64,000 bases of DNA from Candidatus Magasanikbacteria bacterium RIFCSPHIGHO2_01_FULL_41_23 (GCA_001782805.1 MFPT01000002.1:69401-133400); one strand, 5' to 3'. Positions 11,652-55,900 are shown, counted from the first letter of the stretch. Numbers and translations are program-made. Notes: generated from the sequence alone by a model not told the origin.

Positions 11652-11709
11652 AGCGAGATCTTTTTCTCGATGCCCGAGCTCGGTCGAGTGGTCGAGAAAA
11701 AGATCTCGC
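11652..11709 (+). terminator. perfect 18-bp stem hairpin immediately upstream of MITE copy A
   Basis: gcgagatctttttctcga ... tcgagaaaaagatctcgc with a 22-nt GC-rich loop. Confidence 0.5.
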
Positions 11710-11712
11710 GAA

Positions 11713-11824
11713 GTTTGCTTAAGACTTAGAAAGCTGAGTATAATGACTTGTTGAGAATGCATAATCCGTCAGACTATCAGTTGAACAAAAGGATATCGTC
11801 GAATTTTGCTTAAGAGTTAGAAAA
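11713..11824 (+). repeat. MITE-like promoter-bearing repeat, copy A (partly degenerate), upstream of glyA
   Basis: Shares the about 55-nt core gctgagtataatgacttgttgagaatgcataatccgtcagactatcagttgaa with copies B-D, in reverse complement. Flanked by direct repeats ttgcttaagaNttagaaa. Confidence 0.7.
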
Positions 11825-11849
11825 AATGAAGTTTATTTAAAAAATTTAT

Positions 11850-13121
11850 ATGTCCCTCCAAACCCAAGACCCTGACATCTACAATTTAATCCAAAAAGAA
11901 ATCGCCCGCCAAAGCGAAGGCTTGGAAATGATTCCATCCGAAAATCACACTTCCGGCGCAGTCTTGGAAGCTCTCGGATCTCGTCTCACCGACAAATACT
12001 CCGAAGGCTATCCGGGACAGCGCTATTATGGGGGTTGTGAAAATGTGGATGTAGTGGAAAATCTGGCGCGCTACCGTGCCAAGGAATTATTCGGCGCCAC
12101 GCACGCCAATGTCCAGCCTCATTCCGGCTGTCCAGCCAACCTTGCTGTGTATTTTGCCTTACTAAACCCAGGTGATACGGTACTTGGCTTGAATCTACAA
12201 CACGGCGGACACATGACTCATGGCTTGAAATTAAATTTTTCCGGTACGATTTACCATAGTGTCCAGTATACTTGTCGTCCGGACGGCTACATTGATCACG
12301 ATCAAATGCGCGCATTGGCCTTGGAACACAAACCAAAAATGATTATCGGTGGCGGAAGCGCCTATTCACGAATTTATGAATGGGCTAAATACAAAGAAAT
12401 TGCCGATGAAGTGGGCGCATTTTTACTCGCAGACATGAGTCATGTCGCCGGACTGGTGGCCGGAGGCGTATATCCGAATCCGGTCGGTATCGCTGATGTG
12501 GTTACCACGACCACGCACAAAACTTTGCGCGGTCCACGTGGTGCGATTATTCTTGCTAATGGTTTGCCCGCCACACCACTCAAAAAAGTGGAACGGACAA
12601 AAGAAAATATTCCGACTCTAATTGATCGTGCCATTATTCCCGGAATTCAAGGCGGTCCGCACAATCACCAAACCGCCGGCATTGCCGTGGCGCTCAAAGA
12701 AGCAATGCAACCGGAATTCAAGGTGTATGCGCAACAAATTTTGACCAACGCAAAATTATTGGCAGACGAACTAATGCAACGCGGTTATTCCATTGTCACC
12801 GGAGGCACGGAATCGCATTTGATGCTGATTGATTTGACCAATAAAAATTTAACCGGAAAAATTGCCGAAGCCACACTTGGAAAAGCGGGTATTACGGTCA
12901 ACAAAAATACCATTCCCTTTGATCCGCGTCCCCCATTTGACCCTTCCGGCATTCGTCTCGGCACACCGGCCTTGACCACGCGGGGCATGAAAGAAGCGGA
13001 AATGAAAATAATTGCCGGTTTTATTGACCGTGCGCTTGGGAATGCGGAAAATGAGATTGAACTTGCCAAAATTCGAGGAGAGGTGATGGAGATGTGTAAA
13101 TCATTTCCGTTGCCCATATAA
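11850..13121 (+). CDS. glyA: serine hydroxymethyltransferase
   Basis: Full-length SHMT with PLP-lysine region TTTTHKTLRGPRGA and other conserved blocks. Confidence 0.95.
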   Translation: MSLQTQDPDIYNLIQKEIARQSEGLEMIPSENHTSGAVLEALGSRLTDKYSEGYPGQRYYGGCENVDVVENLARYRAKELFGATHANVQPHSGCPANLAVYFALLNPGDTVLGLNLQHGGHMTHGLKLNFSGTIYHSVQYTCRPDGYIDHDQMRALALEHKPKMIIGGGSAYSRIYEWAKYKEIADEVGAFLLADMSHVAGLVAGGVYPNPVGIADVVTTTTHKTLRGPRGAIILANGLPATPLKKVERTKENIPTLIDRAIIPGIQGGPHNHQTAGIAVALKEAMQPEFKVYAQQILTNAKLLADELMQRGYSIVTGGTESHLMLIDLTNKNLTGKIAEATLGKAGITVNKNTIPFDPRPPFDPSGIRLGTPALTTRGMKEAEMKIIAGFIDRALGNAENEIELAKIRGEVMEMCKSFPLPI

Positions 13122-13142
13122 GATCTATCAATTGAACAAGAT

Positions 13143-14153
13143 ATGGCAAATAAAAATAATTCCGTTGGGATAATTATCTATGAAGGTGCGGATGGAGCAC
13201 CTAGTATTGATGTACGTGTTGAAAATGAAACCGTATGGCTTACGCAGGCCCAACTTGCGGAGCTATTCAATACATCTCGCCCCAATATCACGATGCATAT
13301 TAAAAACATCTTTGATGAAGGTGAATTGAGTGAGGTTTCAGTATGTAAGGATTTCTTACACACTGCTACTGATGGCAAGAAATATAACACCAAATCTTAT
13401 AACCTCGATCTTATAATTTCTCTTGGATACAGGATAAAATCTGATATTGCCACTCGCTTTCGCCAATGGGCAACCGAACGTCTTCGTGAGTACCTCATCA
13501 AAGGCTTTACGATGAATGACGAGTTTCTCAAAGAAAATGGCGGGGGCAAATATTGGTATGAACTGCTTGATCGTATTCGTGATATTCGTAGTAGTGAAAA
13601 AGTTTTATATCGTCAGGTGCTCGACCTGTACGCCACGAGTATTGATTACAATCCCAAAGCCTTGGAATCTATTAAGTTTTTTAAGATTGTACAAAATAAA
13701 CTGCACTACGCTGCCCACGGGAACACTGCTGCTGAGGTGATTGTTGCACGAGCAAACGCCGGTAAGCCATTTATGGGTTTGCTGAGTTTTTCAGATGGAG
13801 GGGTAAGTAAAAAAGATATTGCTATTGCAAAAAATTACCTTGATGAGAAAGAGTTAAAAGTGTTGAACAATATTGTCTCTGCGTTTTTTGACTTGGCAGA
13901 AGTGAGAGCAATGGAACATGAGCCAATGTATATGAAAGATTGGATTGCCCAACTCGATAAATTGATTGGTGTATTTGACAAAAAAGTCCTGACGGAGGCT
14001 GGTTCTGTGAGCCATAGTGAGGCGCTGAAAAAAGCTGAAGTGGAGTATAAAAAATTTCAAGCCAAAACGCTTTCTCCCGTCGAAAAAGCCTATCTGGAAA
14101 ATATTAAATTGCTGGAAAAAAAGGTAGAGAAAAAAATAAAAGATAAAAATTAG
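13143..14153 (+). CDS. RhuM family (virulence-associated / DNA-binding) protein
   Basis: N-terminal ETVWLTQAQLAELFNTSRPNITMHIKNIFDEGEL matches the RhuM family signature. Codon usage visibly differs from its neighbours. Confidence 0.65.
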   Translation: MANKNNSVGIIIYEGADGAPSIDVRVENETVWLTQAQLAELFNTSRPNITMHIKNIFDEGELSEVSVCKDFLHTATDGKKYNTKSYNLDLIISLGYRIKSDIATRFRQWATERLREYLIKGFTMNDEFLKENGGGKYWYELLDRIRDIRSSEKVLYRQVLDLYATSIDYNPKALESIKFFKIVQNKLHYAAHGNTAAEVIVARANAGKPFMGLLSFSDGGVSKKDIAIAKNYLDEKELKVLNNIVSAFFDLAEVRAMEHEPMYMKDWIAQLDKLIGVFDKKVLTEAGSVSHSEALKKAEVEYKKFQAKTLSPVEKAYLENIKLLEKKVEKKIKDKN

Positions 14154-14201
14154 TAATTAATTCAGATATGCCGTAACGTTCAAGGACTTATTGAATTACA
14201 A

Positions 14202-14633
14202 ATGGCAAAATTCATATCTAAATCAAATACCGAAACCATTTCTATTGCCAAAAAATTCGCCGGCATTCTTCTTGGCGGTGAAGTCATCACTCTGTCCGGC
14301 GAATTGGGAACAGGCAAAACCGTCTTTGTCAAAGGTTTGGCACAAGCATTGGGAGTGACGAAGGAAATTGTCAGTCCGACTTTTGCGATTATGAATATGC
14401 TGCCGGCAAACAAAAACAAAATAAAAGCACTGGTCCATGTGGATACTTATCGTTTGAAAAATGAAAAAGAGTTGAAGGAAATCGGATTCGGTGATTACCT
14501 GGGCGCGTCCGATACGGTCTGCGTAATTGAATGGCCGGAACTGGCGAAGGGATTACTACCAAAAAAAATAATCTCCGTTACAATTACACACGGAGATAAT
14601 CAGAATGTACGAAACATCACAATCAAAAAATAA
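14202..14633 (+). CDS. tsaE: tRNA threonylcarbamoyladenosine biosynthesis ATPase TsaE
   Basis: SGELGTGKTVFVKG P-loop and VSPTF motif typical of YjeE/TsaE; 143 aa. Confidence 0.8.
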   Translation: MAKFISKSNTETISIAKKFAGILLGGEVITLSGELGTGKTVFVKGLAQALGVTKEIVSPTFAIMNMLPANKNKIKALVHVDTYRLKNEKELKEIGFGDYLGASDTVCVIEWPELAKGLLPKKIISVTITHGDNQNVRNITIKK

Positions 14634-14670
14634 TCCATCCACTTCAGACTTCGGAGCATCCTTGAATTTT

Positions 14671-15762
14671 TTATTTCACCCCAAAAAAAGCCTGATAAAC
14701 CTTCAACGCCATCCACTCCTTAAATTTTCGCCACCGACCGCGCGCGACCCATTGCTTATCTTCCAAAATTTTCGCGTCGTCAATCCATTCCAACACAATT
14801 TCTTTTATTTTTTTGACAAATTTAGGATCGCGCGTCAAAAGATTGGCTTCGTGATTGTAAAAAAAACTGTTTTGATCAATGTTACTGCTCCCCACCATCG
14901 TCCAATCATCGTCCACAATCAGTCCTTTACCATGCATCATTTTGTTCAAAAAATGAATCCGCACACCGGCGCGACGCATGATGCCAAACCAGGTAAACGC
15001 GGCCGCGGTCGCGATCCGCAAATCGCTGCGAAATGGAATTAGCAGATCAACGCGCACTCCCCTTTTTTTTGCTTGCCACAAAGCCTTCAAAAAACCCAAA
15101 TCCGGAAAATAATAGGGAGAAAATAAAATCACCCGTTCACGCGCCTTGTACAGCGCGCGCAGATATTGATCCCGTACCCGCGAGCCTTTCGTATTCGGCT
15201 CATCGTAAATGATATCAAACTCATCATGCATCACTCGAAAGCGATATTTCAGCAAATGCCGAACCGCATTTTTATCGCCACCGCAAATAATATATGATTT
15301 TGCAAATGAACGCAAAAGCGATCGAACGACTTTTCCCTCCAGTCGAACATGGATATCCAGCCAATCGCGCATGGAATGATTAACATTGACTCCCCCGATA
15401 AAACCAACAGTTTCGTCCACAATCAAAATTTTGCGATGAGTACGCGAGGAAAAAATTCCCCACCACACCAAATGTCGCCGTTTTTTATCTTCAAAAAGTC
15501 GAATGTCAATGCCCAAAGCACGCAATTCAGCAATTTTTTTATTTGATATGGCGAGACTACCCCAATAATCAAAAATTAATTTGATATCTACTCCCGCCTT
15601 CGCTTTTTCAATTAAAATCGCCAAAAATTCCCGACCGATTTCATCATCGGTAAACAAATAAACTTCCCAATATATGGAACGCGTAGCCGCGCGCAAAGAC
15701 GTAGCCATGGCCGTCCAAGCTTCTTTGGTGGTGGAATAAATTTGATAATTTGATGTTGCCAC
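14671..15762 (-). CDS. cls: phospholipase D family protein (cardiolipin synthase-like)
   Basis: Two HKD motifs: HRKILIVD and HGKGLIVDDDWTMVGSSNID. Confidence 0.8.
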   Translation of the reverse strand: MATSNYQIYSTTKEAWTAMATSLRAATRSIYWEVYLFTDDEIGREFLAILIEKAKAGVDIKLIFDYWGSLAISNKKIAELRALGIDIRLFEDKKRRHLVWWGIFSSRTHRKILIVDETVGFIGGVNVNHSMRDWLDIHVRLEGKVVRSLLRSFAKSYIICGGDKNAVRHLLKYRFRVMHDEFDIIYDEPNTKGSRVRDQYLRALYKARERVILFSPYYFPDLGFLKALWQAKKRGVRVDLLIPFRSDLRIATAAAFTWFGIMRRAGVRIHFLNKMMHGKGLIVDDDWTMVGSSNIDQNSFFYNHEANLLTRDPKFVKKIKEIVLEWIDDAKILEDKQWVARGRWRKFKEWMALKVYQAFFGVK

Positions 15763-15783
15763 AATTATTGATTGTGAGAATGA

Positions 15784-17415: not shown

Positions 17416-17569
17416 ATAAATTTGTTATTTTTTATGGCACAATTATACCATGTTTCAAAAAATAAGAAACCATCGCAGGAAGGGTTTAAATGTCAGAAAA
17501 TGACACAGAAAATGAGGTCTTGAAAAAATGGCTAAGATACGGTACTATAGAGATTATCTATAAATTTTT

Positions 17570-18421: not shown

Positions 18422-18485
18422 CAATTGACAGCCGAATTTTAAATGATATACTAAATTATACCATTTATTTATTTTAAGGAGGAAT

Positions 18486-21113: not shown

Positions 21114-21587
21114 TTAGGTTTTATTCTTTTTAAGCAATCCCATGGCCACTCCTGCTTCCCCCCAAAAATACCCATGGTTATTTTCTCCCACAGAACGATC
21201 AATGGCTTGTTTTTCAATCTGACAAGTAAGCACGCCAAAAATTACAGGCACTCCTGTTTCAAGTCCAAGACGCATTATTCCTTGACTCACGGCTTGAGCG
21301 ATATATTCATCATGCCGTGTTTCGCCTTTTATTAAACAACCAAGAACAATTACCACGTCAACTCTCTTTTCTTTAATAATTTTCTGCGCACTAAAAGGCA
21401 ATTCAAATGAGCCGGGAACTTCCAAAACAAAAATATTTTTCTTGTTCACTCCGGCATTGGACAATGATTTCAAACAGCCGGCCAACAAATTATCCGTTAT
21501 ACTATTGTTCCACTGTGCTTTTACAATTCCAATTCTTAATTTATTGCCGTTCAATTTTTTATGTTCGATTATTTTTTTTGAGATCAT
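21114..21587 (-). CDS. ribH: 6,7-dimethyl-8-ribityllumazine synthase
   Basis: Conserved lumazine synthase blocks (GIVKAQWN, VPGSFELP, GCLIKGET, HGYFW). Confidence 0.9.
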   Translation of the reverse strand: MISKKIIEHKKLNGNKLRIGIVKAQWNNSITDNLLAGCLKSLSNAGVNKKNIFVLEVPGSFELPFSAQKIIKEKRVDVVIVLGCLIKGETRHDEYIAQAVSQGIMRLGLETGVPVIFGVLTCQIEKQAIDRSVGENNHGYFWGEAGVAMGLLKKNKT

Positions 21588-21625
21588 ATTATTTTTTTAA
21601 TTTAAATCGTAATTAATTTCGTTTT

Positions 21626-21812
21626 TCCTAAGTCTTAATCAAACTCCTTTTTCTAAGTCTTAATCAAACTTCACTGATCCTCTTTTTTTCAACTGATAGT
21701 CTAACGGATTATGCATTCTCAACAAGTTAGTATACTCAGCTTTCAGAAAAAGAGGATTCAGTTCCAGTTTGATTATTAGTATATTGGATGTTTCGCTGTT
21801 GCATATGTTGAA
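21626..21812 (-). repeat. MITE-like repeat, copy B (intact, about 28-bp terminal inverted repeats), upstream of ribH
   Basis: 21657-21778 is nearly identical to 55747-55862. TIRs are taatcaaacttcactgatcctcttttt / aaaaagaggattcagttccagtttgatta. The left end carries an 18-bp tandem duplication. Confidence 0.75.
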
Positions 21813-21830
21813 TTAAATAAACAGTGCGTT

Positions 21831-21935
21831 GATTAAAATAAAAATGGAACGGATGTAGCTTTTTTGAGTCCGTCCCGGTCGGGCGGATCTCAGAAAAAGA
21901 TACGCAGTGAATTTTTATTTTAATTTCCTGACGTG
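21831..21935. repeat. about 100-nt long-hairpin repeat element (copy 1), between ribE and MITE copy B
   Basis: Ends taaaataaaaatgga ... gaatttttattttaatttcct are inverted repeats. Internal gctttttt / aaaaagata arms. Homologous to 50090-50190. Confidence 0.65.
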
Positions 21936-31889: not shown

Positions 31890-32480
31890 TTACGCCAAAC
31901 TAAAATTCCAAAATTCTTCGTGTTTCATCACAACATTAGTTAAAGCAGTAATATCTTCGTGAGTGCGTTTTTCCAGACTGTCAACTCTGCCTTCAAGGCG
32001 GTTAATATCCAGTCTTAATCGTGATTCAACTGAAGTAATCCGTTCTTGCAAGCTTTCTTCCACCATGTCTATTTTCGCGTCAAGACCAAAAATTATATTT
32101 GTGACATTTTCTTCGAGCGTCTTTATATCTTCTTTGGTCGCAAAATTCTTTAGGTCTTCTTTTGTGGCAAAATTTTTTAAATCATCTTTAGTGGCAAATT
32201 GAGTGGCAAATTCTTTTAAATCATCTTTAGTGGCAAAATTCCGAGCGTCTTCTTTTGTGAGAAAATCTTTGGCATCTTCCTTAGTAAGGAAACTTTTGGC
32301 ATCTTCTTTTGTCAAAAAACTTTTTGCGTCATCCTTGGTAAGAAAAAAAGTGGCGTCTTGTTTAGTTAAAAAATTGGCAACAAAAAATTCTTTAAAATCA
32401 ATTAAAAAACTCATTATCTCTTTGGGAGTAATCTCCTTGGTTGGCATATTAGAAAAAATAATCCCGATAGTGAAGCACAT
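31890..32480 (-). CDS. tandem nonapeptide-repeat protein with C-terminal coiled coil
   Basis: About ten FLTKEDAKS / FATKDDLKN repeats encoded by 27-bp tandem DNA repeats, followed by a coiled-coil tail. Start codon uncertain. Confidence 0.5.
   Translation of the reverse strand: MCFTIGIIFSNMPTKEITPKEIMSFLIDFKEFFVANFLTKQDATFFLTKDDAKSFLTKEDAKSFLTKEDAKDFLTKEDARNFATKDDLKEFATQFATKDDLKNFATKEDLKNFATKEDIKTLEENVTNIIFGLDAKIDMVEESLQERITSVESRLRLDINRLEGRVDSLEKRTHEDITALTNVVMKHEEFWNFSLA
32135..32385. repeat. 27-bp tandem repeat array (about 9-10 units) inside the repeat-protein CDS
   Basis: Direct reading shows repeated units such as tctttagtggcaaaatt...; both strands give periodic repeat ORFs. Confidence 0.8.
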
Positions 32481-43165: not shown

Positions 43166-45952
43166 TTGCTCTATTATATAGAAACTAGTCAATTAACTCA
43201 AATTAAACTTGTGACTGATTTTACTCAAGTAGAGAAAATTCCACCCCAAAATCTGGAAGCCGAGATGTCGCTTTTGGGCGCGATTTTAATTGATAAAGAA
43301 GCTTTGCTTAAAATTGCGGATATTTTGGAACCGGATGATTTTTATAAACCCGCACATGCCGAAGTATATCAAGCCATTCTTGATCTGTATGCCAAAAGCG
43401 AGCCCGTGGATATTTTAACATTATCAAATCGTTTGGAAGAACGTGGAGTTTTGGAAAAAATCGGTGGCCGAAGTTTTGTCGTCAGTCTAGCCAACACTGT
43501 TCCCACGGCTTCGCATGTTAAACATTACGCGGATATTGTCGCCCGCAAAGCCACGTTACGCAAACTCATTGGCGCGGCCAGTGAAATTTCTCGTTTGGGT
43601 TTTACGGAAGATTCCGATGAAATTGAAATGCTCCTTGATAAAGCCCAACAGCATGTCTTTAGCGTAACGCAAAAACATATTAAACAAACCTTCACGCCCA
43701 TTCGCGGAATTTTAAGCGAAGCCTTTGATCGGATTGATGAATTGCATCGCGACAAAGGCAAATTGCGCGGCGTGCCCACCGGATTTCGGGAATTGGACAA
43801 TATCTTGGCCGGTTTGCAAAAATCCGATTTGATTATTTTAGCGGCGCGGCCATCGGTCGGAAAAACTTCACTCGCGCTCGACATTGCGCGTCACGTAGCG
43901 ATTCGCGAAAAAGTGCCCGTGGGAATTTTTTCTTTGGAAATGAGCAAAGAACAATTTGTGGATCGTCTGCTGTGTGCCGAAGCCGGCGTGGATTTATGGA
44001 AAATGCGCACAGGCAATCTTTCTGATCGGCCAGATAGTGATGATTTTCCGCGCATTGGTCATGCCATGGGTGTTTTGTCCGAAGCCCCCATTTATATAGA
44101 TGATTTTCCGGGCAACAATGTAATGCAAATTCGCACCAAAGCGCGTCGTCTCAAATCCGAACATGGTCTTGGTCTTATTATTATTGATTACATGCAGTTA
44201 ATGGAATCGCATAATAATAAATACTCGGAAAATCGTGTCCAAGAAGTTTCTGAAATGAGCCGTAATTTAAAAGGGATTGCGCGTGAACTAAATGTGCCGG
44301 TTTTGGCATTGTCGCAATTATCTCGTGCGGTGGAACAAACCAAACCAGCCATTCCCAAATTGTCGCACTTACGTGAATCAGGATGTTTAACCGGAGACAC
44401 GATTATCATTCGGGCTGATACTGGCGAACCAGTCCGGCTCATTGATATTGTCACCGGTAAGATTCCAACCCCTTTACCTATATTTGCCCTCGACGAGAAC
44501 TGGAAAATCTCCCCACAAATAATGACTAAAGCCTTTTCCTCTGGTCAAAAAAAGGTATTTGAAATGCGTTTGCGAAGCGGGCGCACCATTCGCGCCTCAG
44601 CCAATCATCCATTCCGTACACTTGGAGGCTGGACAAACTTAGAAGATTTATGTCCTGGTATGCGTATTGCAGTCCCTCGTGTTTTGACACCACAAAAACC
44701 CACCAATCTTATGAACTTGGATGAGCTCGCATTACTGGCACATCTCTTGGGCGACGGATGCACAGTACCACGACAGCCAATTCATTATACCAGTGCTGAT
44801 CCGGAAAATTTAGCGGTAGTAGAGCAAACCGCTATAAAATTATTTAACATAAAACCGCGTCGAGTCAAGCAAAAAAATTGGTGGCATGTGTATCTTCCTT
44901 CACCCTACCACCTCACTCATGGAAAACATCATCCCATTACTAACTGGTTTTCGCAGTTAGGTATCGGTCTACGACACTCTTATAAAAAGGAAATACCACT
45001 TCAAGTATTCCAATCAGACAGCTCCCATATCGCGCACTTCCTCCGCCATCTATGGGCCACTGACGGTAATATTTCCTGGAAATTTATACTAGGTAGAAAA
45101 CCAGCCGGAGCAATTTATTACTCTAGCACTAGCACGGTGTTGGCAAGACAAGTCCAGCATTTACTTACTCGTTTAGGTATATTCTCAACATTACGCCTCG
45201 TGCCGCAAGGCGATCATCGACCAGCGCACCAAGTTCATGTCCAAGGAAGTACCAATCAAAAAACATTTCTTTCAGTGGTTGGTTCGGCAGGCAGTCGTGG
45301 TGATATTGTACCGGCTATGCTTACCGCCCTTCAAGAAATAACAGCAAACCCAAACCGTGACACTATTCCTCACGAGATCTGGAATAGTACCATTGAAGAA
45401 GCGAGAACCGAAGCCAATATCAGTTGGAGAGAATTATACCGCCAACTAGACAATTCTTATGCTGGTACCGTTAAGCAAAATTCTGTGGGTAGAGAACGAC
45501 TCGGTCGAATCGCAGTGGCCCTCAAAAGCAAACCATTGCAACTACTCGCCGACTCTAGTATTTTTTGGGACGAAATTGAATCCATCGTATCTCAAGGTAT
45601 GGAAGAAGTGTACGATGCCACCGTACCCAGATTTCACAATTTTGTCGCCAATGACATTATTGTCCATAATAGTATCGAACAAGACGCGGATGTGGTATTA
45701 TTCATCTATCGCAAAGCCGCGGATCGCAATTATCGTTTGGAAGATATTCCGCCGGATGAACGTCATCTGGGAGAAATTCACGTGGCCAAACATCGCAATG
45801 GTCCCACTGGCATGGCTAAAGTTTTTTTTGATGAAACGCGCGCGAGTTATCGTAATTTAGATACGCGGTATGTTCCGCCAACAGGCGGAGGACAATCGCA
45901 TGCTCCAGCCAATCTACCCAAACCAGGATCAGTCAATGTGCCAAGTTTTTAA
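43166..45952 (+). CDS. dnaB: replicative DNA helicase DnaB, interrupted by an in-frame intein
   Basis: Conserved DnaB N-terminal domain, Walker A ARPSVGKTSLAL, Walker B IIIDYMQL. The helicase sequence ...HLRESG / SIEQDADVV... is split by a 429-aa insertion. Confidence 0.9.
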   Translation: MLYYIETSQLTQIKLVTDFTQVEKIPPQNLEAEMSLLGAILIDKEALLKIADILEPDDFYKPAHAEVYQAILDLYAKSEPVDILTLSNRLEERGVLEKIGGRSFVVSLANTVPTASHVKHYADIVARKATLRKLIGAASEISRLGFTEDSDEIEMLLDKAQQHVFSVTQKHIKQTFTPIRGILSEAFDRIDELHRDKGKLRGVPTGFRELDNILAGLQKSDLIILAARPSVGKTSLALDIARHVAIREKVPVGIFSLEMSKEQFVDRLLCAEAGVDLWKMRTGNLSDRPDSDDFPRIGHAMGVLSEAPIYIDDFPGNNVMQIRTKARRLKSEHGLGLIIIDYMQLMESHNNKYSENRVQEVSEMSRNLKGIARELNVPVLALSQLSRAVEQTKPAIPKLSHLRESGCLTGDTIIIRADTGEPVRLIDIVTGKIPTPLPIFALDENWKISPQIMTKAFSSGQKKVFEMRLRSGRTIRASANHPFRTLGGWTNLEDLCPGMRIAVPRVLTPQKPTNLMNLDELALLAHLLGDGCTVPRQPIHYTSADPENLAVVEQTAIKLFNIKPRRVKQKNWWHVYLPSPYHLTHGKHHPITNWFSQLGIGLRHSYKKEIPLQVFQSDSSHIAHFLRHLWATDGNISWKFILGRKPAGAIYYSSTSTVLARQVQHLLTRLGIFSTLRLVPQGDHRPAHQVHVQGSTNQKTFLSVVGSAGSRGDIVPAMLTALQEITANPNRDTIPHEIWNSTIEEARTEANISWRELYRQLDNSYAGTVKQNSVGRERLGRIAVALKSKPLQLLADSSIFWDEIESIVSQGMEEVYDATVPRFHNFVANDIIVHNSIEQDADVVLFIYRKAADRNYRLEDIPPDERHLGEIHVAKHRNGPTGMAKVFFDETRASYRNLDTRYVPPTGGGQSHAPANLPKPGSVNVPSF
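44384..45670 (+). mobile_element. DnaB intein with LAGLIDADG-type homing endonuclease domain
   Basis: Begins with Cys (CLTGDTII) and ends ...IVHN followed by Ser. LLAHLLGDGC is a LAGLIDADG block. Sits at the canonical DnaB intein site between RESG and SIEQDAD. 1287 nt and in frame. Confidence 0.85.
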
Positions 45953-48907: not shown

Positions 48908-49052
48908 ATTCTATAGTACACTCCTTTGGCTGATTTATTTCAAATAAACTTAAAGAATCCATCCAAAAGAACCTATTCTTATTGACAAAAAATGATAAAA
49001 TAATTATTCTTACGAACAGTCTAGCGCAATCAACAGCGCTACGAGGTTAGAA

Positions 49053-49961: not shown

Positions 49962-50089
49962 TAGCGCCCACCCCCCAATCCCACCAATCGGGCGACAACC
50001 AAAACTATGTCACCCAACCCTTATTTCTAAAGTTTGGAAATAGAGGTTGGAGGAAACGACATAGTTTTTGTTTTATTAAAATGTATTTA

Positions 50090-50190
50090 CTAAAATAAAA
50101 ATGGACTGGATATAACTTTTTTGGGCACGGAATTTATGACGTGATCCAGAAAAAGTTATGCAAGGAATTTTTATTTTAATTTCCTTAATG
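50090..50190. repeat. about 100-nt long-hairpin repeat element (copy 2), between the GC-rich oxygenase gene and rplU
   Basis: Same conserved ends as copy 1. Central stem differs but stays partly complementary (ataactttttt / aaaaagttat). Confidence 0.65.
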
Positions 50191-50197
50191 TATTATT

Positions 50198-50231
50198 AAA
50201 AAAATCCTCGTTTGATGCAAGGATTTTTTAT
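50198..50231 (-). terminator. Rho-independent terminator downstream of rplU
   Basis: aaaaaaatcctcg..caaggatttttt hairpin with flanking A/T runs, so possibly bidirectional. Confidence 0.5.
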
Positions 50232-50242
50232 TATATTTTATT

Positions 50243-50554
50243 TTAAACTTTGATAACTTTCACTTTGGTGAAATGCTGCCGATGACCAATCGTTCTCTTA
50301 TAACGAACTTTGCGTTTATATTTAACCACTAAAATTTTCTTAGCACGCCCTTGTTCCGCCACAATGGCCTCAACCGTAACACCCTCCAAATACGGAGCGC
50401 CAATTTTAACATCCGTCCCATCATCTTCAGCCGTCAGCATTACTTTATCAAAAATAATAATACCGTTAACTTCGGCCGGAAGTTTTTCCACTTTTAAGGC
50501 ATCGCCACTTTTAACCAAATATTGCTTACCACCTGTTTCAATAACTGCGAACAT
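50243..50554 (-). CDS. rplU: 50S ribosomal protein L21
   Basis: MFAVIETGGKQYLVKSGDALKVEKL is the canonical L21 N-terminus; 103 aa. Confidence 0.9.
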   Translation of the reverse strand: MFAVIETGGKQYLVKSGDALKVEKLPAEVNGIIIFDKVMLTAEDDGTDVKIGAPYLEGVTVEAIVAEQGRAKKILVVKYKRKVRYKRTIGHRQHFTKVKVIKV

Positions 50555-50628
50555 ATAAATAAATTAAGCCAAATAAATCTAAAATTAGGAATGAGCGGAT
50601 TATACGCAAATGCTTCAAAATTGTCAAG

Positions 50629-51108
50629 CTAAGGATCCCCAACAATTTCCAATCTATCTCCAATCTTCAAATCATATTTTTCAACCCATCCAGCCTCCAA
50701 TTCCAAAACCAAATTGGCTGACTTACGTGGAATATAACGTCGCAGTTCTGTTTCTTTAATATCTAGTTCAGTTGGAACATTGGGCGCAATATCCACCACT
50801 TCGCCGTTCAAAAACCACACGATATCAATGGGAAAAAGCGTATCGCGCATCACAAATCCGTATTTGTTGGGAACGGCAAACACAAATAACATTCCATCAT
50901 AAGGAGCAAGTGCTGTTCTGCCACCAAGACCTTTGTAATGCCGATACGGATTATCTGCCACCAAAACTTTCAGTGACGTATCTTTTAAAATTACCGTTGT
51001 CTTAGGCCAATAAAATTTATAAGCTTGGACACTAATAAAACCAATTAAAAAAATTACTACAATAATTTTGAAATGTCGAATTGAACGTTCTTTATTTATT
51101 TCTGACAT
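50629..51108 (-). CDS. DUF192 domain protein (membrane-anchored)
   Basis: N-terminal TM helix, then the DUF192 core (FPIDIVWFLNGEVVDI...). Confidence 0.6.
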   Translation of the reverse strand: MSEINKERSIRHFKIIVVIFLIGFISVQAYKFYWPKTTVILKDTSLKVLVADNPYRHYKGLGGRTALAPYDGMLFVFAVPNKYGFVMRDTLFPIDIVWFLNGEVVDIAPNVPTELDIKETELRRYIPRKSANLVLELEAGWVEKYDLKIGDRLEIVGDP

Positions 51109-51150
51109 ATTTCAATAATATTTACTCCAATTCATAAAAAAATAGTCTTT

Positions 51151-51330
51151 ACTCCCTCGTAATCAAACTCCGTTTTCTAAGTCTAAAGCAAAATTCAACG
51201 ATATCCTTTTGTTCAACTGATAGTCTAACGGATTATGCATTCTAAACAAGTCATTATACTCAGCTTTCAGCAAAAGTATATTCGTCTCCATTTTGCTTAT
51301 TAGTATATTGGATGTTTGGGTGTTGCATTA
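51151..51330 (-). repeat. MITE-like repeat, copy C (degenerate ends), upstream of DUF192 gene
   Basis: Same core as copy B (caactgatagtctaacggattatgcattctaaacaagtcattatactcagctttc) and the same downstream block attagtatattggatgttt. Confidence 0.7.
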
Positions 51331-51344
51331 GGTGTTGCCTTTGT

Positions 51345-51535
51345 GGGTAATTTCAGTAGTGGGTAATTTTATTTTTCAGTAATGTGTATGAGCATCCTTT
51401 CTACTGGCTTGGTTAGAGTAGATTAGATGTCAATAAAGCATAGACTGGGAGGGTAAAAGAATAGCGAGTTTTACTGAAAAAGAAAATTATCTACTACTGA
51501 AATTCATGTTGATTTAAATTGAGTTGATTTATTTT
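51345..51535. repeat. degenerate long-hairpin element upstream of MITE copy C
   Basis: Long-range inverted repeats tttcagtagt / actactgaaa and ttttcagtaatg / ttactgaaaa. Ends with ttttaatttcct, as in the other hairpin elements. Confidence 0.4.
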
Positions 51536-51542
51536 AATTTCC

Positions 51543-52586
51543 TCAAAGTATTTGGGATTTATTTTTATTCCGTTTTGACAAAAAAGTAGACAGGCCAAAC
51601 ATAATCGCGCCCAGAATCACAAAAGCCAACAATTTATACCGATTCGACAAAAACAACGCCGATAAACCAAACACCAAAGCGATGCTATACATTACCAGCA
51701 CCGCCTCACGTTGAGTTAGACCGGAATTTAATAATTTAAAATGCAAATGTTCACTGTCTCCGACAAAAATCGGCTTACCCTTATACCAGCGTTCAAAAAT
51801 TACCCGCGCCACATCCAAAGCCGGCAAACCCAAAACCAACAACGTTGTAATAATTTTGCTACCGGAAATAACCGCGATAATGGCCAACAAATAACCGGTC
51901 AATAAACTGCCGCCCTCACCCAAAAAAATTTTAGCCGGATGAAAATTCCAAACCAAAAATCCCATACATGAACCGGCCAGAAGCAATGCCAAAAAACTAA
52001 CCTCGGGCTGAAACCATGCCGACTGTTGCGTTAAAAAATAAATAATAATCGCGCCAATCGCCACCATCCCTGATACCAAACCATCCAAACCATCCAAAAA
52101 TTTGGTCGTAAACATCATGCCCATTAACCAAAAAAATAAAATAATATCAGCCCCGGCAAACCATTGACTTAGATTGATTGAACCACCAAGCGGATTAGTG
52201 ATTGCTGTCGGTCCCATACCAACATACACCAAAATTAAACTGGCGATAATTGGACAAATTATTTGCACACTGGGTGGCAATTGATATTTATCATCAAACC
52301 AACCGCCAATCATCAGAATGCTTGCGCCAAGCCACACTGCCACAATATGATAAAAAGGAATTTCAACAAAAATAACCAAACGAATGACGATTGACAAAAA
52401 TAACAAACCAAAAAAAGTCAGATAAATTACCCAACCACCACCCAAAGGAATAGCGCGATCATGAATTTTTCTCCCTTGTTTTTGCGGTCGATCGATTATG
52501 CCAAAACGTCTCATTGCCCAAGCCACAAACGGAGACAAAATACAGGCCACAATCCCAGCCATCCACAAAGTTGCTAAACGAATCAT
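51543..52586 (-). CDS. glycosyltransferase family 4 polyprenyl-phosphate sugar-1-phosphate transferase (WecA/TagO/MraY family)
   Basis: 10-11 TM helices. DRPQKQGRKIHDRAIPLGGG resembles the WecA N-terminal motif. DDKYQ-type cytoplasmic loops. Confidence 0.7.
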   Translation of the reverse strand: MIRLATLWMAGIVACILSPFVAWAMRRFGIIDRPQKQGRKIHDRAIPLGGGWVIYLTFFGLLFLSIVIRLVIFVEIPFYHIVAVWLGASILMIGGWFDDKYQLPPSVQIICPIIASLILVYVGMGPTAITNPLGGSINLSQWFAGADIILFFWLMGMMFTTKFLDGLDGLVSGMVAIGAIIIYFLTQQSAWFQPEVSFLALLLAGSCMGFLVWNFHPAKIFLGEGGSLLTGYLLAIIAVISGSKIITTLLVLGLPALDVARVIFERWYKGKPIFVGDSEHLHFKLLNSGLTQREAVLVMYSIALVFGLSALFLSNRYKLLAFVILGAIMFGLSTFLSKRNKNKSQIL

Positions 52587-52609
52587 ATTATTTTTTTGAT
52601 ACTATCATT

Positions 52610-55369
52610 TCAAGTCGGCAAAGGCAATCCAGCGCGTTCAATTGAAATTTTTGCATTTTCTCCAACAACAATGATATCACGTCGTTGCAATTTCCCACTC
52701 AAAATTAATTCAGCCAATTGGTCTTCCACATGTTCTTGAATCGCGCGACGCATCGGACGCGCGCCAAATTCCGGATCATATCCAATTTGGGACAATGCCT
52801 CGAGTCCGGCATCTTCCACGCGCAAATCAATCCCTCGCGCTTCCAAATCTTTGGCCACGCGCTTTAACATAAAGCCGGCAATTTGTTTAATTTCTTCCCG
52901 ATTCAATGGCGTAAATACTATAATACCATCAAAGCGATTCAAAAATTCCGGCCGATAATAATTTTTTAATTCCGAGCGTAATAATTTTTCCCGAATCTGA
53001 TCAGTCGGTGTTCCCGCCCGCACTGCTTCTTGAATAAAAGTAGTTCCCGCATTTGATGTCGCGATAATAATCGTATTGGTAAAATCAATCACGCGACCAA
53101 TACTATCAGTCAAACGTCCGTCATCAAAGACTTGCAAAAATAAATTCAACACATTGGGATCGGCTTTTTCCAACTCATCCAACAAAATTAAAGAAAATGG
53201 TTTTTCACGCACAGCTTCGGTCAAAAGTCCGGTGCCTTGTTGACCAATCTGACCAATCAAACGATAAATTCCGCTTTTGTCCTGATATTCACTCATGTCC
53301 ACGCGAATCATTCGGTCTTCGCGGCCAAAATAGACATCAGCGATTGTTTTGGCCAATTCAGTTTTACCAACTCCGGTCGGACCTAAAAATAAAAAATTCG
53401 CGATTGGCCGGCCTTTGGAACGAATTTCCGCTCGCGCTCGACGAAGTGCGCTTGCCACCATAACCACGGCTTCGTTTTGTCCCACCACCCGTTTATGCAT
53501 TTCGGTTTCCAGACGCAACAGTTTACTGGATTCATCTTCGCTAATACTCGTTGCGGGAATCCCGGTTTTTTGTCCAATCACAGCCGCTACATCATCGGTC
53601 GTAACCAATGGTTTTGCCGGATGTTTGCTATGAGCCAAACTCGCGCTTTCGGAAAATAAAGTCAATGCACTTTCGGGCAAATACTGATCATGCAAATAAC
53701 GATTGGCATGTTGAACACAACGCGCCAGCGCATCATAGGAAAAAAATACATTATGCTTATACTCCACCTGTCCGGCCTTTGATTCCAAAACTTGAATCGC
53801 TTGATTTTCATCCATTATGGAAATTTCCACTTTGGCAAAAATAGAGCTTAATTCAGAATTGGCAATATGTTTGTGATAGGCATCAGGTTGAGTCGTGGCC
53901 AAAGTTAAAAAATGGCCGCCACTTAAATATTCAGCCAAAGTTCCGGCCACATTCATACCTGATTCTTGTTGCGCATCTTCCCCACCGATCAAATCAGTGA
54001 CATTATTGATTACCAAAATAATATTCCGCGCGCGCGCCAGCTCATTCATAATTTTAATCAATCGTTCCTGCGCTCCGGAAACAGTCGTCCCGGCCAAAAG
54101 CGATGAAGTAGAAACTTGGACGAGTCGTTTATCTTTTAAACGATCCGGCACACGATCTTGCACCATACGTTCGGCAATCCCTTCAATGATACTCATTTTC
54201 CCCACTCCGGGAGAGCCCACCAAAAGCACACTCTGTTGTCCACCTTCAATGATTCTAAAAATTGCGTCAATTTCATTATCGCGCGCCACGCACGGATACA
54301 AATATCCCAATTGTGCTTTAAGCGTTAAATCCTCGCTAAAACTATTTAAAAACGGAGTAGCCACCGCAGTCATGGCTCGGTCAATCCCATGAGTATCCCG
54401 ATGCGCCGAGGCTTGGCGTAACGCCAAATAATCTTCGCGTAATTGTTCACGAATTCGTACCCAAGCCACGACATTGTCCAGTTTAACACTGTCAATATTC
54501 AAATCATATAAAATTTCTTGCAAAGCCGGCCACGCCCGAACCGTTGCCAAAAGCAAAGCGCTTTCCCGGACATGCGAATCATGAGTTTTGGCCGAAATTT
54601 CGTACGCCGCAAATAAAATTTGCTCAAAAATATCGGACATGACCGGCTCAATAGTATTTTTTGTTTTTGTTATTTCAAAAGTAGAAACTCTGACTTTAAC
54701 TGTTTCCGGTGAAATCCCCAGACGAATAAACATGTTACCCACCATTGGTTGATCGATTAAAGCCAAAAATAGATGTTTTGGTTCAATCATTGCTGACTTT
54801 TCTGTCACTGCCAACTTAAAAGCGGTATCAAGTGTGTGTTTGGCAGTGACGGTAAACGTTTCCGAAATATTTAATGATCTAACTTTTGGTATTTTTTTTA
54901 ATTGCTCCCAATCTAATTGGACAATTTCTGGCGCTTCATCGTTGGTATAATTTCGTAATAAGGCAATTGGCTTATTTGATTGAACAATCCGATACCACAC
55001 ATAACTGAACGCGCCAATGCCTAACCAAAAAAATGATTTGGTCCACAAATGTCGCCGCGACCAAAAATCAAATGAAAATAAATCCAACCAAAAATCCATT
55101 CGATAAATATCCCAAAAAAATAAACCAACAAATCCCAGACCAAAAATCAAAGCGGTCATGATTTGAAAAGCATTTAAAAAATCTCGACCGCGACGAAGCG
55201 CGATATCATAAGCTGACAATGGCCAAGTCCAATACCAAAATTCATTATACAAAAAAAATCCACGCCCACGTCCCAGACAAAACGAACATTTGAATAAACC
55301 TTTAAGACCGGTTGCACTACAGTTCGCACACCGGATAACATTAAATTTTTCGTTTTGAGAAAATTGCAT
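52610..55369 (-). CDS. membrane-anchored ClpB/ClpC-like AAA+ ATPase with N-terminal DnaJ-type zinc finger
   Basis: N-terminal CxxC..CxxCxGxG, about 3 TM helices, two Clp_N repeats. D1 has GSPGVGKMS (Lys followed by Met) and VINN in place of DE. D2 is canonical (GPTGVGKTELAK, LLDELEKA, GARPMRR). No IGF loop and no long M-domain. Confidence 0.75.
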   Translation of the reverse strand: MQFSQNEKFNVIRCANCSATGLKGLFKCSFCLGRGRGFFLYNEFWYWTWPLSAYDIALRRGRDFLNAFQIMTALIFGLGFVGLFFWDIYRMDFWLDLFSFDFWSRRHLWTKSFFWLGIGAFSYVWYRIVQSNKPIALLRNYTNDEAPEIVQLDWEQLKKIPKVRSLNISETFTVTAKHTLDTAFKLAVTEKSAMIEPKHLFLALIDQPMVGNMFIRLGISPETVKVRVSTFEITKTKNTIEPVMSDIFEQILFAAYEISAKTHDSHVRESALLLATVRAWPALQEILYDLNIDSVKLDNVVAWVRIREQLREDYLALRQASAHRDTHGIDRAMTAVATPFLNSFSEDLTLKAQLGYLYPCVARDNEIDAIFRIIEGGQQSVLLVGSPGVGKMSIIEGIAERMVQDRVPDRLKDKRLVQVSTSSLLAGTTVSGAQERLIKIMNELARARNIILVINNVTDLIGGEDAQQESGMNVAGTLAEYLSGGHFLTLATTQPDAYHKHIANSELSSIFAKVEISIMDENQAIQVLESKAGQVEYKHNVFFSYDALARCVQHANRYLHDQYLPESALTLFSESASLAHSKHPAKPLVTTDDVAAVIGQKTGIPATSISEDESSKLLRLETEMHKRVVGQNEAVVMVASALRRARAEIRSKGRPIANFLFLGPTGVGKTELAKTIADVYFGREDRMIRVDMSEYQDKSGIYRLIGQIGQQGTGLLTEAVREKPFSLILLDELEKADPNVLNLFLQVFDDGRLTDSIGRVIDFTNTIIIATSNAGTTFIQEAVRAGTPTDQIREKLLRSELKNYYRPEFLNRFDGIIVFTPLNREEIKQIAGFMLKRVAKDLEARGIDLRVEDAGLEALSQIGYDPEFGARPMRRAIQEHVEDQLAELILSGKLQRRDIIVVGENAKISIERAGLPLPT

Positions 55370-55370
55370 A

Positions 55371-55730
55371 TTAGGGACTGAAGCTGGAAATGATCAGCAT
55401 ATAAATCACAAATACGGGCATAACTAACCACAATAAAAATAAAACCAAAACTACAAAAAACCAAACTAATAAACATAACGTGCGGCCAATCACATTGGTC
55501 AAACGCACGATAAAACTGATCAGTCTTCCCTGCCAATCATGCTGACCAAACATCGGCACAAAAACATTTTTGAGCCACAATCTTGGAGCCAATAAATTAT
55601 TGGCCGCAGACAACAAATTTAGACACGCGCGCAAGGTGTGCATCATGCCGCTGGTATACCACCAAAAGGGAAAATAAAAAATATCGAAAATAAATTCGAT
55701 GAATAATCTTTGTAAAACTAGAAGATGCAT
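55371..55730 (-). CDS. small membrane protein (hypothetical)
   Basis: 119 aa, about 3 TM helices. Ends 1 bp before the Clp ATPase gene, so probably co-transcribed. Confidence 0.4.
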   Translation of the reverse strand: MHLLVLQRLFIEFIFDIFYFPFWWYTSGMMHTLRACLNLLSAANNLLAPRLWLKNVFVPMFGQHDWQGRLISFIVRLTNVIGRTLCLLVWFFVVLVLFLLWLVMPVFVIYMLIISSFSP

Positions 55731-55746
55731 ACGTTTTTACTAACTC

Positions 55747-55900
55747 GTAATCAAACTTCACTGATCCTCTTTTTTTCAACTGATAGTCTAACGGATTATG
55801 CATTCTCAGTAAGTCAATATACTCAGCTTTCAGAAAAAGAGGATTCAGTTCCAGTTTGATTCAAAGATTAATTGAATGTTTTGGTGTTGCACTCGTGAGA
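55747..55900 (-). repeat. MITE-like repeat, copy D (intact), upstream of membrane-protein/Clp operon
   Basis: Nearly identical to copy B over about 115 nt, including both terminal inverted repeats. Confidence 0.75.

Follow-up and report, generated by a model that had tools for sequence, protein, structure and literature searches.

The window analysed here, a stretch of 64,000 nt from a Candidatus Magasanikbacteria genome, holds four intergenic copies of a repeated element, referred to as copies A to D. The host is an uncultivated groundwater bacterium. The cores of the four copies lie at 11729-11826 on the plus strand (A) and at 21648-21744 (B), 51173-51268 (C), and 55734-55831 (D) on the minus strand, and the genes downstream of them are glyA (A), ribH (B), a DUF192 gene (C), and a 119-aa ORF followed by ClpB (D). 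An earlier note on this DNA had described four copies with a shared core of about 55 nt; the four copies were recovered and are 85-95% identical, but the stretch that they share is ~100 nt long. Specifically, in a repeat search within the window, the core of copy A matched that of copy C with 95% identity over 96 nt, that of copy B with 87% over 97 nt, and that of copy D with 85% over 98 nt. Copies B and D, which had been called near-identical, are indeed closely alike (89.8% identity over 157 nt), and a direct alignment of copies B, C, and D extends over 242 nt with 64-76% identity.

Arrangement of the copies in the window

Copy A (11722-11826, plus strand) consists of the core, a 3' arm, and a first tandem unit, has no 5' arm of its own, and carries the -10-like hexamer TATAAT at 11739-11744; a degenerate second unit (GAAGTTTATTTAAAAAA..., 11827-11849, plus strand) reaches the glyA ATG at 11850. 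Where its 5' arm would be expected stands a complete core-less member of the same family, termed H (11640-11721, plus strand), with an outer stem TAAGTAAACT/AGTTTGCTTA, a perfect 18-bp inner stem (11653-11670/11692-11709), and a GC-rich apical loop, which folds with -47.5 kcal/mol (z -8.2); the covariance model matches copy A at 11682-11836 with 88 bits. Located 5' of this foldback is the U module (11396-11650, plus strand), a repeat of ~240 nt that is 80-91% identical to at least seven other copies in the same genome (L002/L005 5605-5850, L003 1421-1655, L004 173-404, L005 11342-11614, L006 333-581, L008 7912-8147, and L093 3240-3445). An 84-aa ORF upstream of copy A (MARSLHCPL..., with a conserved C-terminus) was considered as a gene and rejected because its frame is not maintained from copy to copy and in-frame stops interrupt it in several of them; therefore, U is non-coding. 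U can form two alternative closing stems, and covariation lent no support to its internal structure.

Copy B (21618-21790, minus strand) lies within the rib gene cluster and is a complete foldback with type ii arms, the hexamer TATACT at 21729-21734, and two tandem units (21668->21646 and 21643->21621) that precede the ribH ATG at 21587; it scores 176 bits against the covariance model (21637-21790) and folds with -43.5 kcal/mol (z -5.4). Upstream of it, after the ribE stop codon, is the palindrome P1 (21831-21935, minus strand; arms TTAAAATAAAAAT/ATTTTTATTTTAA, GC-rich apex), which folds with -29.1 kcal/mol (z -3.9). A second P1 palindrome (50086-50185, minus strand; z -5.2) lies downstream of rplU as a related module with no adjoining core and is 84-90% identical to 21829-21929. 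Copy C (51140-51314, minus strand) is a complete foldback with type i arms, core, and units, followed by the DUF192 ATG at 51108; it scores 172 bits (51161-51314; fold z -3.2). It is preceded by the V hairpin (51345-51510, minus strand), the 34-nt arms of which (51349-51382/51471-51504) are 91% complementary and enclose an 88-nt loop (-42.8 kcal/mol, z -5.3); the V module also precedes a copy in L007. Copy D (55724-55877, minus strand) is again a complete foldback with type ii arms (168 bits, fold z -4.7), and the 119-aa ORF/ClpB pair downstream starts at the ATG at 55730. Upstream of it lies an ordinary intrinsic terminator of the upstream FtsL-like gene (55933-55957, minus strand; a 10-bp stem with 4 G-C pairs and a T-run), outside the repeat, and between terminator and copy there is an extended -10 promoter-like motif, TGGTATACT (55909-55917, minus strand), which shares the TGnTAnAAT form with the other apparent promoters in this genome.

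According to the earlier note, each copy is preceded by a strong hairpin or terminator. As a description this order is correct, and all four hairpins are real, but they are four different things and not one conserved feature, i.e. a core-less family member (A), the palindromic repeats P1 and V (B and C), and an ordinary terminator (D). Likewise, the hairpins upstream of copies A, B, and C have no T-run and do not qualify as intrinsic terminators; only that of copy D, which is canonical, does.

Anatomy of the foldback family

The foldback is composed of two imperfect inverted arms of ~30 nt enclosing either the conserved core of ~55 nt or a GC-rich loop and measures 130-155 nt. The outer ~20 nt of the arm (TTTGMTTAMGAnTTAG) are repeated one to four times in tandem on the gene-proximal side with a period of 24-27 bp and occur once, inverted, on the distal side, where the ~240-nt U module or other palindromes (P1, V) may precede the element; composites reach up to ~450 nt. 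The terminal inverted repeats previously proposed are present in copies B, C, and D, where they are imperfect and ~30 nt long, and not in copy A, and the 5' arm is absent from 3 of the 10 core-bearing copies that we found in total (see below). In an RNAalifold analysis of seven two-armed copies, 35 pairs were predicted with 98.4% of cells paired, compared to 31-46% when the partners were slid. Between arm types i and ii, eight pairs are changed on both sides and none is broken. The core-less copies have a third self-complementary arm type and are still matched by the covariance model built from core-bearing copies (L008 7820-7941 with 54 bits and L093 3081-3225 with 50 bits). Modules are reshuffled among copies: the copy in L006 joins an H-type 5' side to a type ii 3' arm, and U is found both with and without a foldback.

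In the alignment of core-bearing copies, the core contains a 32-nt block with almost no variation, a near-invariance that is partly biased because the copies outside the window were retrieved with an exact pattern taken from this block. Small stems with series of G-C, G.U, and A-U pairs occur at alignment columns 63-88 and in the H stem of the window, L004, and L008. In all 12 foldbacks compared, folding is more stable on the sense strand of the element than on the antisense strand, an advantage inherited from a few G.U pairs; this bias is not decisive for a function as RNA because the two copies lying antisense to the adjacent genes show it as well and the P1 and V hairpins show the opposite. 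Judged from its sequence, the family is non-coding, the foldback being shorter than ~600 bp and devoid of conserved coding capacity; an 18-aa ORF in the core (MHNPLDYQL...) was dismissed as a gene, with its stop, length, and frame varying among copies.

Dispersal in the genome and orientation relative to genes

Counting copies beyond the window added six loci of the same genome (GCA_001784325.1, Candidatus Magasanikbacteria, CPR), giving 10 core-bearing copies, and the association with gene 5' ends was kept in all ten. The assignment of these loci to the same genome is based on their proteins being in the NCBI MAG accession set of the window and on the locus-tag prefix A2821_ in four of the six. 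The dispersed family thus comprises at least 10 core-bearing and at least 3 core-less loci, which are 85-99% identical and have unrelated flanks; copies at unrelated loci can be near-identical (L001 and L003, 99%; L001 and L004, 98%). Assembly ends fall within the element in four independent assemblies, and the breaks that metagenome assemblies of this organism have at these points are explained by the repeat. Among near-identical strains, identical copies were present in all, with no presence/absence polymorphism. No exact match to the element was found among GTDB species representatives and IMG/VR, no blastn or covariance-model match in at least 80 Patescibacteria loci (including 80 glyA loci and the rib loci of relatives), and no similar DNA in plasmid and phage collections; in the literature we found no account of such repeats in Magasanikbacteria or CPR.

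The orientation reported in the earlier note holds, both for the window, in which all four copies lie upstream of a co-oriented ORF, and for the family: all ten core-bearing copies are situated between co-directional genes, are co-oriented with both of them, and lie 71-160 nt from the ATG. The two core-less copies that stand alone (L093 3075-3445 and L008 7790-8170) point opposite to the genes on both sides. How many units a copy has and how far it lies from the ATG are freely variable. Outside the window, the downstream genes encode a TraD-like protein, a GT2 glycosyltransferase, acetolactate synthase, a LamG-like protein, a PfkB kinase, and a putative GalU-type protein assigned by reading. 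A riboswitch or regulon was rejected because the ten downstream genes have no common pathway. An orientation linked to replication was also rejected: copy A is on the plus strand and copies B-D are on the minus strand with no change in the sign of the GC skew between them, which argues that orientation follows the local genes and not the replication arm.

Comparison with relatives

The spacer between ribE and ribH is 361 nt here and 1 nt in a relative (L100); in the closest relative (L101), an unidentified upstream gene ends 1 nt before ribH, and in L099 flavokinase and ribH are separated by 8 nt. Similarly, the NUDIX-glyA spacer is 469 nt here compared to 70 nt in L009, with the first ~30 nt past the stop codon alignable. 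By this comparison, the element represents DNA inserted relative to related genomes, the nearest element-free relatives being so distant (56-84% amino-acid identity) that gradual spacer growth looks the same at base resolution.

The proposal that the element is a MITE is supported in that it is dispersed, non-coding, bounded by inverted arms, and inserted. On the other hand, a MITE would also be expected to have a target-site duplication and a cognate transposase, and our search recovered neither: no direct repeat could be discerned where the arms of B, C, D, L001, L003, and L007 end, with no close empty site available for comparison, and no transposase or integrase Pfam family is present among the called genes in about 80 kb around the window. 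The outer borders are blurred by the arms running into the tandem units and the tail of U, and no target-site duplication was definable.

Comparison with known repeat families

Correia and BOX elements are known to combine inverted arms, modularity, promoter-like boxes, and hairpins targeted by RNase III (PMC2649163, PMC3049150, PMC10969869). As in the element described here, Correia elements (CREE/NEMIS) of Neisseria are non-coding sequences of ~100-150 nt with inverted arms of ~26-30 nt around a conserved core, lie in many copies just 5' of genes, and carry promoter-like boxes; their transcripts form hairpins that are bound or cleaved by RNase III (PMC2649163, PMC10969869). However, Correia promoters arise at the ends of the elements, which are found in both orientations, whereas the present element carries its -10-like box apically and has a strictly fixed orientation. 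Moreover, on direct reading no WATCAANNNNTTR match, TA duplication, or IHF site is recognisable, and the element resides in a CPR bacterium whose genome is very small. As judged from the element's own sequence, the resemblance is one of function and architecture only. BOX elements of Streptococcus pneumoniae (boxA-boxB(n)-boxC) are likewise modular composites with terminal modules that pair, a short tandem module in variable number, and stem-loops predicted upon transcription, and their effects on downstream genes depend on orientation (PMC3049150). They differ in that the reiterated boxB lies between the paired ends, whereas the unit described here corresponds to the outer part of the 3' arm, outside the hairpin; the sequences are not similar, and neither the target-site duplications nor the similarity to ISSpn2 ends known for BOX was found.

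ERIC/IRU and BIME/REP sequences are imperfect palindromes in transcribed intergenic regions, often within operons, BIMEs being mosaics of several motif types and the effects of ERIC on mRNA being orientation-dependent (PMC3049150, PMC2229807). They share with the present family that they are imperfect palindromes between genes; however, REP units are far shorter (20-40 nt) and linked to RAYT transposases, ERIC occurs in both orientations, and none of these sequences is similar to the element. Finally, integron attC sites such as the Vibrio cholerae repeats resemble the element as highly similar imperfect palindromes of ~120 nt in one orientation with co-directional genes, but they form a cassette array, whereas the copies in the window are 5-30 kb apart among core housekeeping genes. 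On direct reading, the attC R''/R' sites (RYYYAAC/GTTRRRY) are matched at no more than six of seven positions in one arm type and are absent from the other, and no integrase is annotated nearby. We conclude that the element is a new, lineage-restricted intergenic repeat of the MITE-like, Correia, and BOX kind.

Alternative explanations for the repeat and its polarity

A chance similarity or an assembly artefact is refuted. AT-rich intergenic DNA does yield short spurious repeats, and the window contains many small families of this type; however, the matches described here extend over ~100 nt at 85-95% identity, a 22-nt core pattern occurs four times in the real sequence and not once in 100 shuffles, and the identical sequence was recovered in independent NCBI, ENA, JGI, and Logan assemblies. 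The earlier note proposed, as one reading, a portable promoter cassette, in which the TATAAT-like hexamer of the core would act as the functional -10 for the downstream gene and the upstream hairpins would insulate it against read-through. The hexamers are present as claimed (TATAAT, TATACT, TATAAT, and TATATT in the window, with TTGCTT-18 nt-TATAAT in copy A), and all ten copies have one (TATAAT, TATATT, TATACT, or TATGAT), which varies at positions 4 and 5 only, T1, A2, T3, and T6 always being kept. This reading would also account for the ten core-bearing copies all being aimed at a start codon 71-160 nt away while core-less copies are not locked in orientation; an element inserted into the 1-nt ribE-ribH spacer seen in the relative L100 would create a need for new expression signals; a TTG lies 18 nt 5' of the hexamer in A, L004, and L006; and promoters are known from Correia elements and other MITEs (PMC10969869). 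However, no -35 was found: a scan for -35/-10 sigma-70 sites with 16-18 nt spacing gave no site in any of the four window regions, and even the best two-hexamer case, copy A, has 3/6 in TTGCTT. The apparent promoters of this genome have the form TGnTAnAAT, whereas the element has TGAGTATAAT; because the core reads CTGAGTATAAT, its TG is 2 nt from the hexamer and not 1, so that it is one base out of register for an extended -10. In addition, the hexamer falls in one of the most variable parts of the core, is placed apically in the conserved hairpin, and follows hairpins three of four of which have no T-run to insulate it. An extended -10 lies upstream of the whole element in copy D (55917-55909), L003, L004, and possibly A, and between element and ATG in L001 and L006; because of these canonical motifs, the internal hexamer would not be needed in D, L001, L003, L004, and L006. 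Bacteroidetes-type promoters (-33 TTTG/-7 TAnnTTTG) formed by the units were rejected, as the host belongs to Patescibacteria with TGnTAnAAT and the units read RRRTTTG, and on direct reading no convincing match was seen to sigma-54, IHF, CtsR, CIRCE, LexA, or integron attC motifs. The sequence evidence for a promoter in the element is therefore weak, a promoter cassette is unlikely, and we infer that the element is not primarily one.

Could the element act instead as RNA, as a conserved cis-acting leader, i.e. a structured 5'-UTR or intercistronic regulator such as a protein-binding site or a sensor, recruited before many genes? Its orientation is locked to the sense strand, the hairpin is preserved via eight compensated positions, the small stems have G-C, G.U, and A-U series, the 32-nt core block is almost invariant, and D, L003, and L004 have a promoter 5' of the element. 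Such a leader would be new, given that no Rfam 15 match at gathering score was obtained in the whole window; permissive Rfam searches with A, B, and L003 gave only sub-threshold miRNA, snoRNA, and other chance matches, and ARAGORN found no tRNA or tmRNA. We consider it quite improbable, however: an identity of 85-99% between copies is more in keeping with recent spread than with a functional RNA of long standing, the downstream genes belong to no common pathway, and the element is absent from every related genome examined. Moreover, three of ten copies are unable to form the hairpin because their 5' arm is missing, all eight compensations derive from one division into two arm types, ascertainment accounts for part of the invariance of the core block, and in L001 and L006 the nearest promoter is downstream of the element. 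The pairing itself does not prove folding at the RNA level because a mechanism acting on DNA would also keep the arms complementary. A further reading is an array of protein-binding sites on the DNA, with unit and core as putative operator or architectural sites for a regulator, nucleoid protein, or recombinase acting on an adjacent promoter. The unit is reiterated with a period of 24-27 bp and once inverted, both arms co-vary as expected if a single protein reads both, and the arrays in L001 and L006 are directly upstream of an extended -10 promoter. Nevertheless, this appears very improbable: 24-27 bp do not correspond to integral helical turns, unit number and distance to the ATG are freely variable, no candidate protein was identified, and transposase-binding ends predict the same features.

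Discussion

We suggest, with a probability of roughly 55%, that the repeat is a lineage-restricted, modular, non-coding foldback family, MITE-like and resembling Correia and BOX elements, that has colonised the spacers before unrelated housekeeping genes in one Candidatus Magasanikbacteria genome. Such a family may have spread by transposition or by hairpin-mediated recombination, together with gene conversion, and copies may have survived only in spacers between co-directional genes. There, the element would be transcribed as part of a 5' leader or an intercistronic RNA and form an imperfect hairpin of ~30 bp, which, by analogy, would be a processing or stability element of the kind that serves as an RNase III substrate. 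The core would confer polarity and be tolerated only when aimed at the downstream gene, and the likeliest cause of this polarity would be a directional activity, either a weak -10-only promoter or a motif in the sense-strand RNA.

A more far-reaching possibility, which we regard as doubtful, is that the core and its hairpin frame together form a portable module for directional expression, as a -10-only promoter or as a structured leader RNA of a new kind, and that this streamlined CPR genome has spread it to restart or tune the expression of housekeeping genes. If so, these would include genes that were formerly translationally coupled, such as ribE and ribH, and a selfish repeat would have been domesticated as a standard "gene front end" in a host whose promoters and leaders are otherwise uncharacterised. 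If the foldback family is only a tolerated MITE, it would be an ordinary addition to a well-known class.

The genomes of CPR/Patescibacteria are small and compact, and few dispersed repeats are thought to occur in them. The presence here of a mosaic foldback family, which occurs about once per 10-15 kb and has split a ribE-ribH pair 1 nt apart in a relative, shows that small mobile or recombining DNA continues to remodel genomes of this type. Through its strict polarity, with defined sequences and junctions, the core offers a concrete handle on the signals for transcription and mRNA processing in an uncultivated lineage.

A dispersed repeat family in a Magasanikbacteria genome

A repeat search in the window paired copy A (11729-11826, +) with copy C (51173-51268, −; 96 nt, 95% identity), copy B (21648-21744, −; 97 nt, 87% identity) and copy D (55734-55831, −; 98 nt, 85% identity), and a direct alignment among the three minus-strand copies spanned 242 nt. 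The 22-nt core pattern occurred four times in the window vs. never in 100 shuffles. These data bear out the four dispersed copies reported in an earlier note on this sequence as well as the existence of a shared core, although its length came to ~100 nt, about double the ~55 nt estimated there. The flanking genes were also as described, i.e. NUDIX then glyA (A), ribE then ribH (B), family-4 glycosyltransferase then DUF192 (C), and FtsL-like then a 119-aa ORF and ClpB (D). We conclude that the repeat is real and that its earlier description was largely correct.

The earlier note suggested counting copies in further genome sequence. An exact-pattern scan of JGI metagenomes matched eight contigs representing six further loci (L002 is the same as L005, and L006 overlaps L008), giving ten core-bearing copies in total. 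Because proteins beside the further copies have NCBI accessions of the same MAG set as glyA in the window (Candidatus Magasanikbacteria, Patescibacteria/CPR, from Rifle groundwater), and four of the adjoining proteins share the locus-tag prefix A2821_, we assign all copies to one genome or species. The exact core pattern had no match in IMG/VR or among GTDB species representatives; because the latter apparently lack the host species, although the MAG is in NCBI, this absence refers to other species only. The element also had no match in at least 80 loci of other Patescibacteria (blastn; covariance model), and nothing similar was found in plasmid and phage DNA. Near-identical strains carry identical copies, and four independent assemblies break off within the element, as would be expected at a repeat.

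Inverted arms, exchangeable cargo and variable upstream modules

Comparison of B, C, D and the copies on contigs L001-L004, L006-L008 and L093 revealed a modular element. In B, C, D and the copies on L001, L002, L003 and L007 we found a pair of imperfect inverted arms of ~30 nt, in agreement with the earlier claim of such arms; RNAalifold gave 35 pairs with 98.4% of cells paired vs. 31-46% when the partners were slid. Eight arm pairs were altered on both sides and none was broken; because all eight compensations separate arm type ii (B, D) from type i (the other five copies), they represent one evolutionary split rather than eight. The arms enclose either a ~55-nt core or a GC-rich loop. Specifically, the hairpin at 11640-11721 upstream of copy A (−47.5 kcal/mol, z −8.2) is a complete core-less family member (H), and a covariance model derived from the core-bearing copies recognised the equivalent core-less copies on L008 and L093 with scores of 54 and 50 bits. 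Copy A thus consists of a core-less foldback and, behind it, a core without its own 5' arm, a layout also found in L004 and in L006, which joins a copy-A-like 5' side to a type ii 3' arm. A tandem unit of ~20 nt, corresponding to the outermost part of the arm (RRRTTTGMTTAMGAnTTAGnAAA), is present one to four times on the gene-proximal side with a period of 24-27 nt; the distal side has a single inverted and slightly shorter copy.

A hairpin lies upstream of each copy, as the earlier note stated, but it is not a single conserved feature, being a core-less member, the palindrome P1, the hairpin V or an ordinary terminator; the modules ahead of the foldback likewise vary between U, P1, V or merely the neighbour's terminator (55933-55957 for D). 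Module U (11396-11650; ~240 nt) has at least eight copies (elsewhere L003 1421-1655; L004 173-404; L005 5605-5850 and 11342-11614; L006 333-581; L008 7912-8147; L093 3240-3445) and can be closed by either of two stems that exclude each other, CATGTCAGTCAG/CTGACTGACATG or TGGCAATCATCCC/GGGATGATTGCCA; a 16-nt palindrome, TCCCGACATGTCGGGA, is optional. U is found both next to a foldback and without one, pointing either way with respect to genes; its internal structure had no covariation support, and a coding function was rejected since reading frames vary among copies and some contain stop codons. P1 (~100 nt; 21831-21935 and 50086-50185) lies directly 3' of the ribE and rplU stop codons and has arms TTAAAATAAAAAT/ATTTTTATTTTAA, a GC-rich apex and no T-run. 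V (51345-51510, and L007 1715-1900 in the same genome) has 34-nt arms, 91% complementary, and an 88-nt loop.

The region holds other features. A 27-nt tandem repeat has nine in-frame copies (32095-32366) inside a 196-aa ORF (31890-32480, −). Two similar ~70-nt intergenic hairpins (57815-57890 and 59057-59134; AAAAAAyCACCCGACGCC ... GGGTGrTTTTTT; 80% identity over 45 nt) flank an NYN-domain gene region and may represent terminators or a pair of small RNAs. At 43166-45952, precomputed Pfam matches indicate a DnaB helicase split by an intein that carries a LAGLIDADG homing-endonuclease domain. A restriction-modification pair (L095 5049-6790, ~0.4-2.1 kb past the right end of the window), RE_Eco47II and a cytosine DNA methylase with a MerR/HTH domain, adjoins a UvrA-like gene.

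The element is inserted relative to related genomes

P1 and copy B occupy a 361-nt ribE-ribH gap in the window, vs. 1 nt in relative L100 (ribH 63% identical). In the closest relative (L101; 69%) the gene upstream of ribH likewise ends 1 nt before it, and in one more distant Magasanikbacteria relative (L099) the flavokinase-ribH gap is 8 nt. Similarly, the NUDIX-glyA spacer measures 70 nt in L009 (glyA 84% identical) vs. 469 nt in the window, with the first ~30 nt past the stop codon still alignable. These comparisons show the element to be inserted DNA relative to the relatives' loci. Because near-identical strains carry identical copies, no empty site is close enough to set borders. No target-site duplication was readable at the copies. 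Size, inverted arms, copy number, non-coding nature and insertion are those of a MITE, as the earlier note proposed, but neither a target-site duplication nor a cognate transposase was found (no transposase or integrase among called genes in ~80 kb around the copies); the assignment is incomplete.

Fixed orientation of the core and the promoter question

Each of the ten core-bearing copies is flanked by co-directional genes and shares their orientation (two-sided sign test ~0.002), with 71-160 nt from core to ATG, confirming the constant orientation noted earlier. The two core-less copies that stand alone (L093 3075-3445; L008 7790-8170) run opposite to both adjacent genes (10:0 vs. 0:2; Fisher's exact test ~0.015, with small numbers). 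Because of these two copies, the constraint seems to belong to the core rather than the arms. Replication arm was rejected as the setter of orientation because GC skew does not change sign between A (+) and B-D (−); orientation tracks local genes. No common pathway was found among the genes downstream of core-bearing copies.

The core hexamer (TATAAT, TATATT, TATACT or TATGAT) keeps T1, A2, T3 and T6 in all copies, which favours a promoter; its location in the core's most variable stretch and the hairpin's apical part speaks against one. Most genes of the genome are without a Shine-Dalgarno sequence, and its apparent promoters are extended −10 motifs, TGnTAnAAT, without a clear −35 (1661, 38425, 43142, 48993, 57907 and 61309, +; 17450 and 55917, −). 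No copy in the window passed a two-hexamer promoter scan and, because the core reads CTGAGTATAAT, its TG is shifted by one base relative to TGnTAnAAT. A canonical extended −10 (TGGTATACT, 55917-55909) lies between the terminator and copy D, and in L003 and L004 such a motif directly precedes the entire composite; the one for A may lie inside the last part of the NUDIX gene. In L001 and L006, 7 nt separate the end of the motif from the ATG, which suggests leaderless mRNAs. By these positions, the likely promoter precedes the element in some copies and follows it in others, a pattern more in keeping with a tolerated insertion than with an integral promoter. The earlier proposal that the core bears a promoter is weak.

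As for an RNA-level role, the sense strand folds 1.5-11 kcal/mol better than the antisense strand in 12/12 foldbacks. Two small stems show G-C/G·U/A-U series (alignment columns 63-88, and the stem of H as compared between the window, L004 and L008). The strand asymmetry, however, is inherited from a few pairs; it persists in two copies antisense to their neighbours and is reversed for P1, which folds better on the antisense strand, and V. As a sign of RNA-level folding it is suggestive only. A 32-nt core block is near-invariant, partly by ascertainment because the extra copies were retrieved by an exact pattern from this block. In the Rfam search proposed earlier, the element matched no known RNA family.

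Discussion

The evidence best supports a mosaic family of MITE-like foldback repeats that is restricted to one lineage. Its members may have spread by transposition or recombination, would be co-transcribed with the downstream gene, and could fold into a ~30-bp hairpin acting on processing or stability. Directional activity of the core, whether as a weak promoter consisting of a −10 alone or as a motif on the sense strand, might be the reason for its fixed orientation. In architecture and likely behaviour, the closest counterparts appear to be the Correia elements of Neisseria, with inverted arms, a core, promoter-like boxes and mRNA hairpins targeted by RNase III (PMC2649163, PMC10969869); the present family shares the arms, core and promoter-like boxes. 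With the BOX elements of pneumococci, which are modular, contain a sub-unit reiterated in tandem and have effects that depend on orientation (PMC3049150), it shares modularity and a reiterated unit. Nothing here goes beyond the known behaviour of Correia, BOX or ERIC elements. Dispersed mosaic repeats that separate closely spaced genes are nevertheless a surprise in a streamlined CPR genome.
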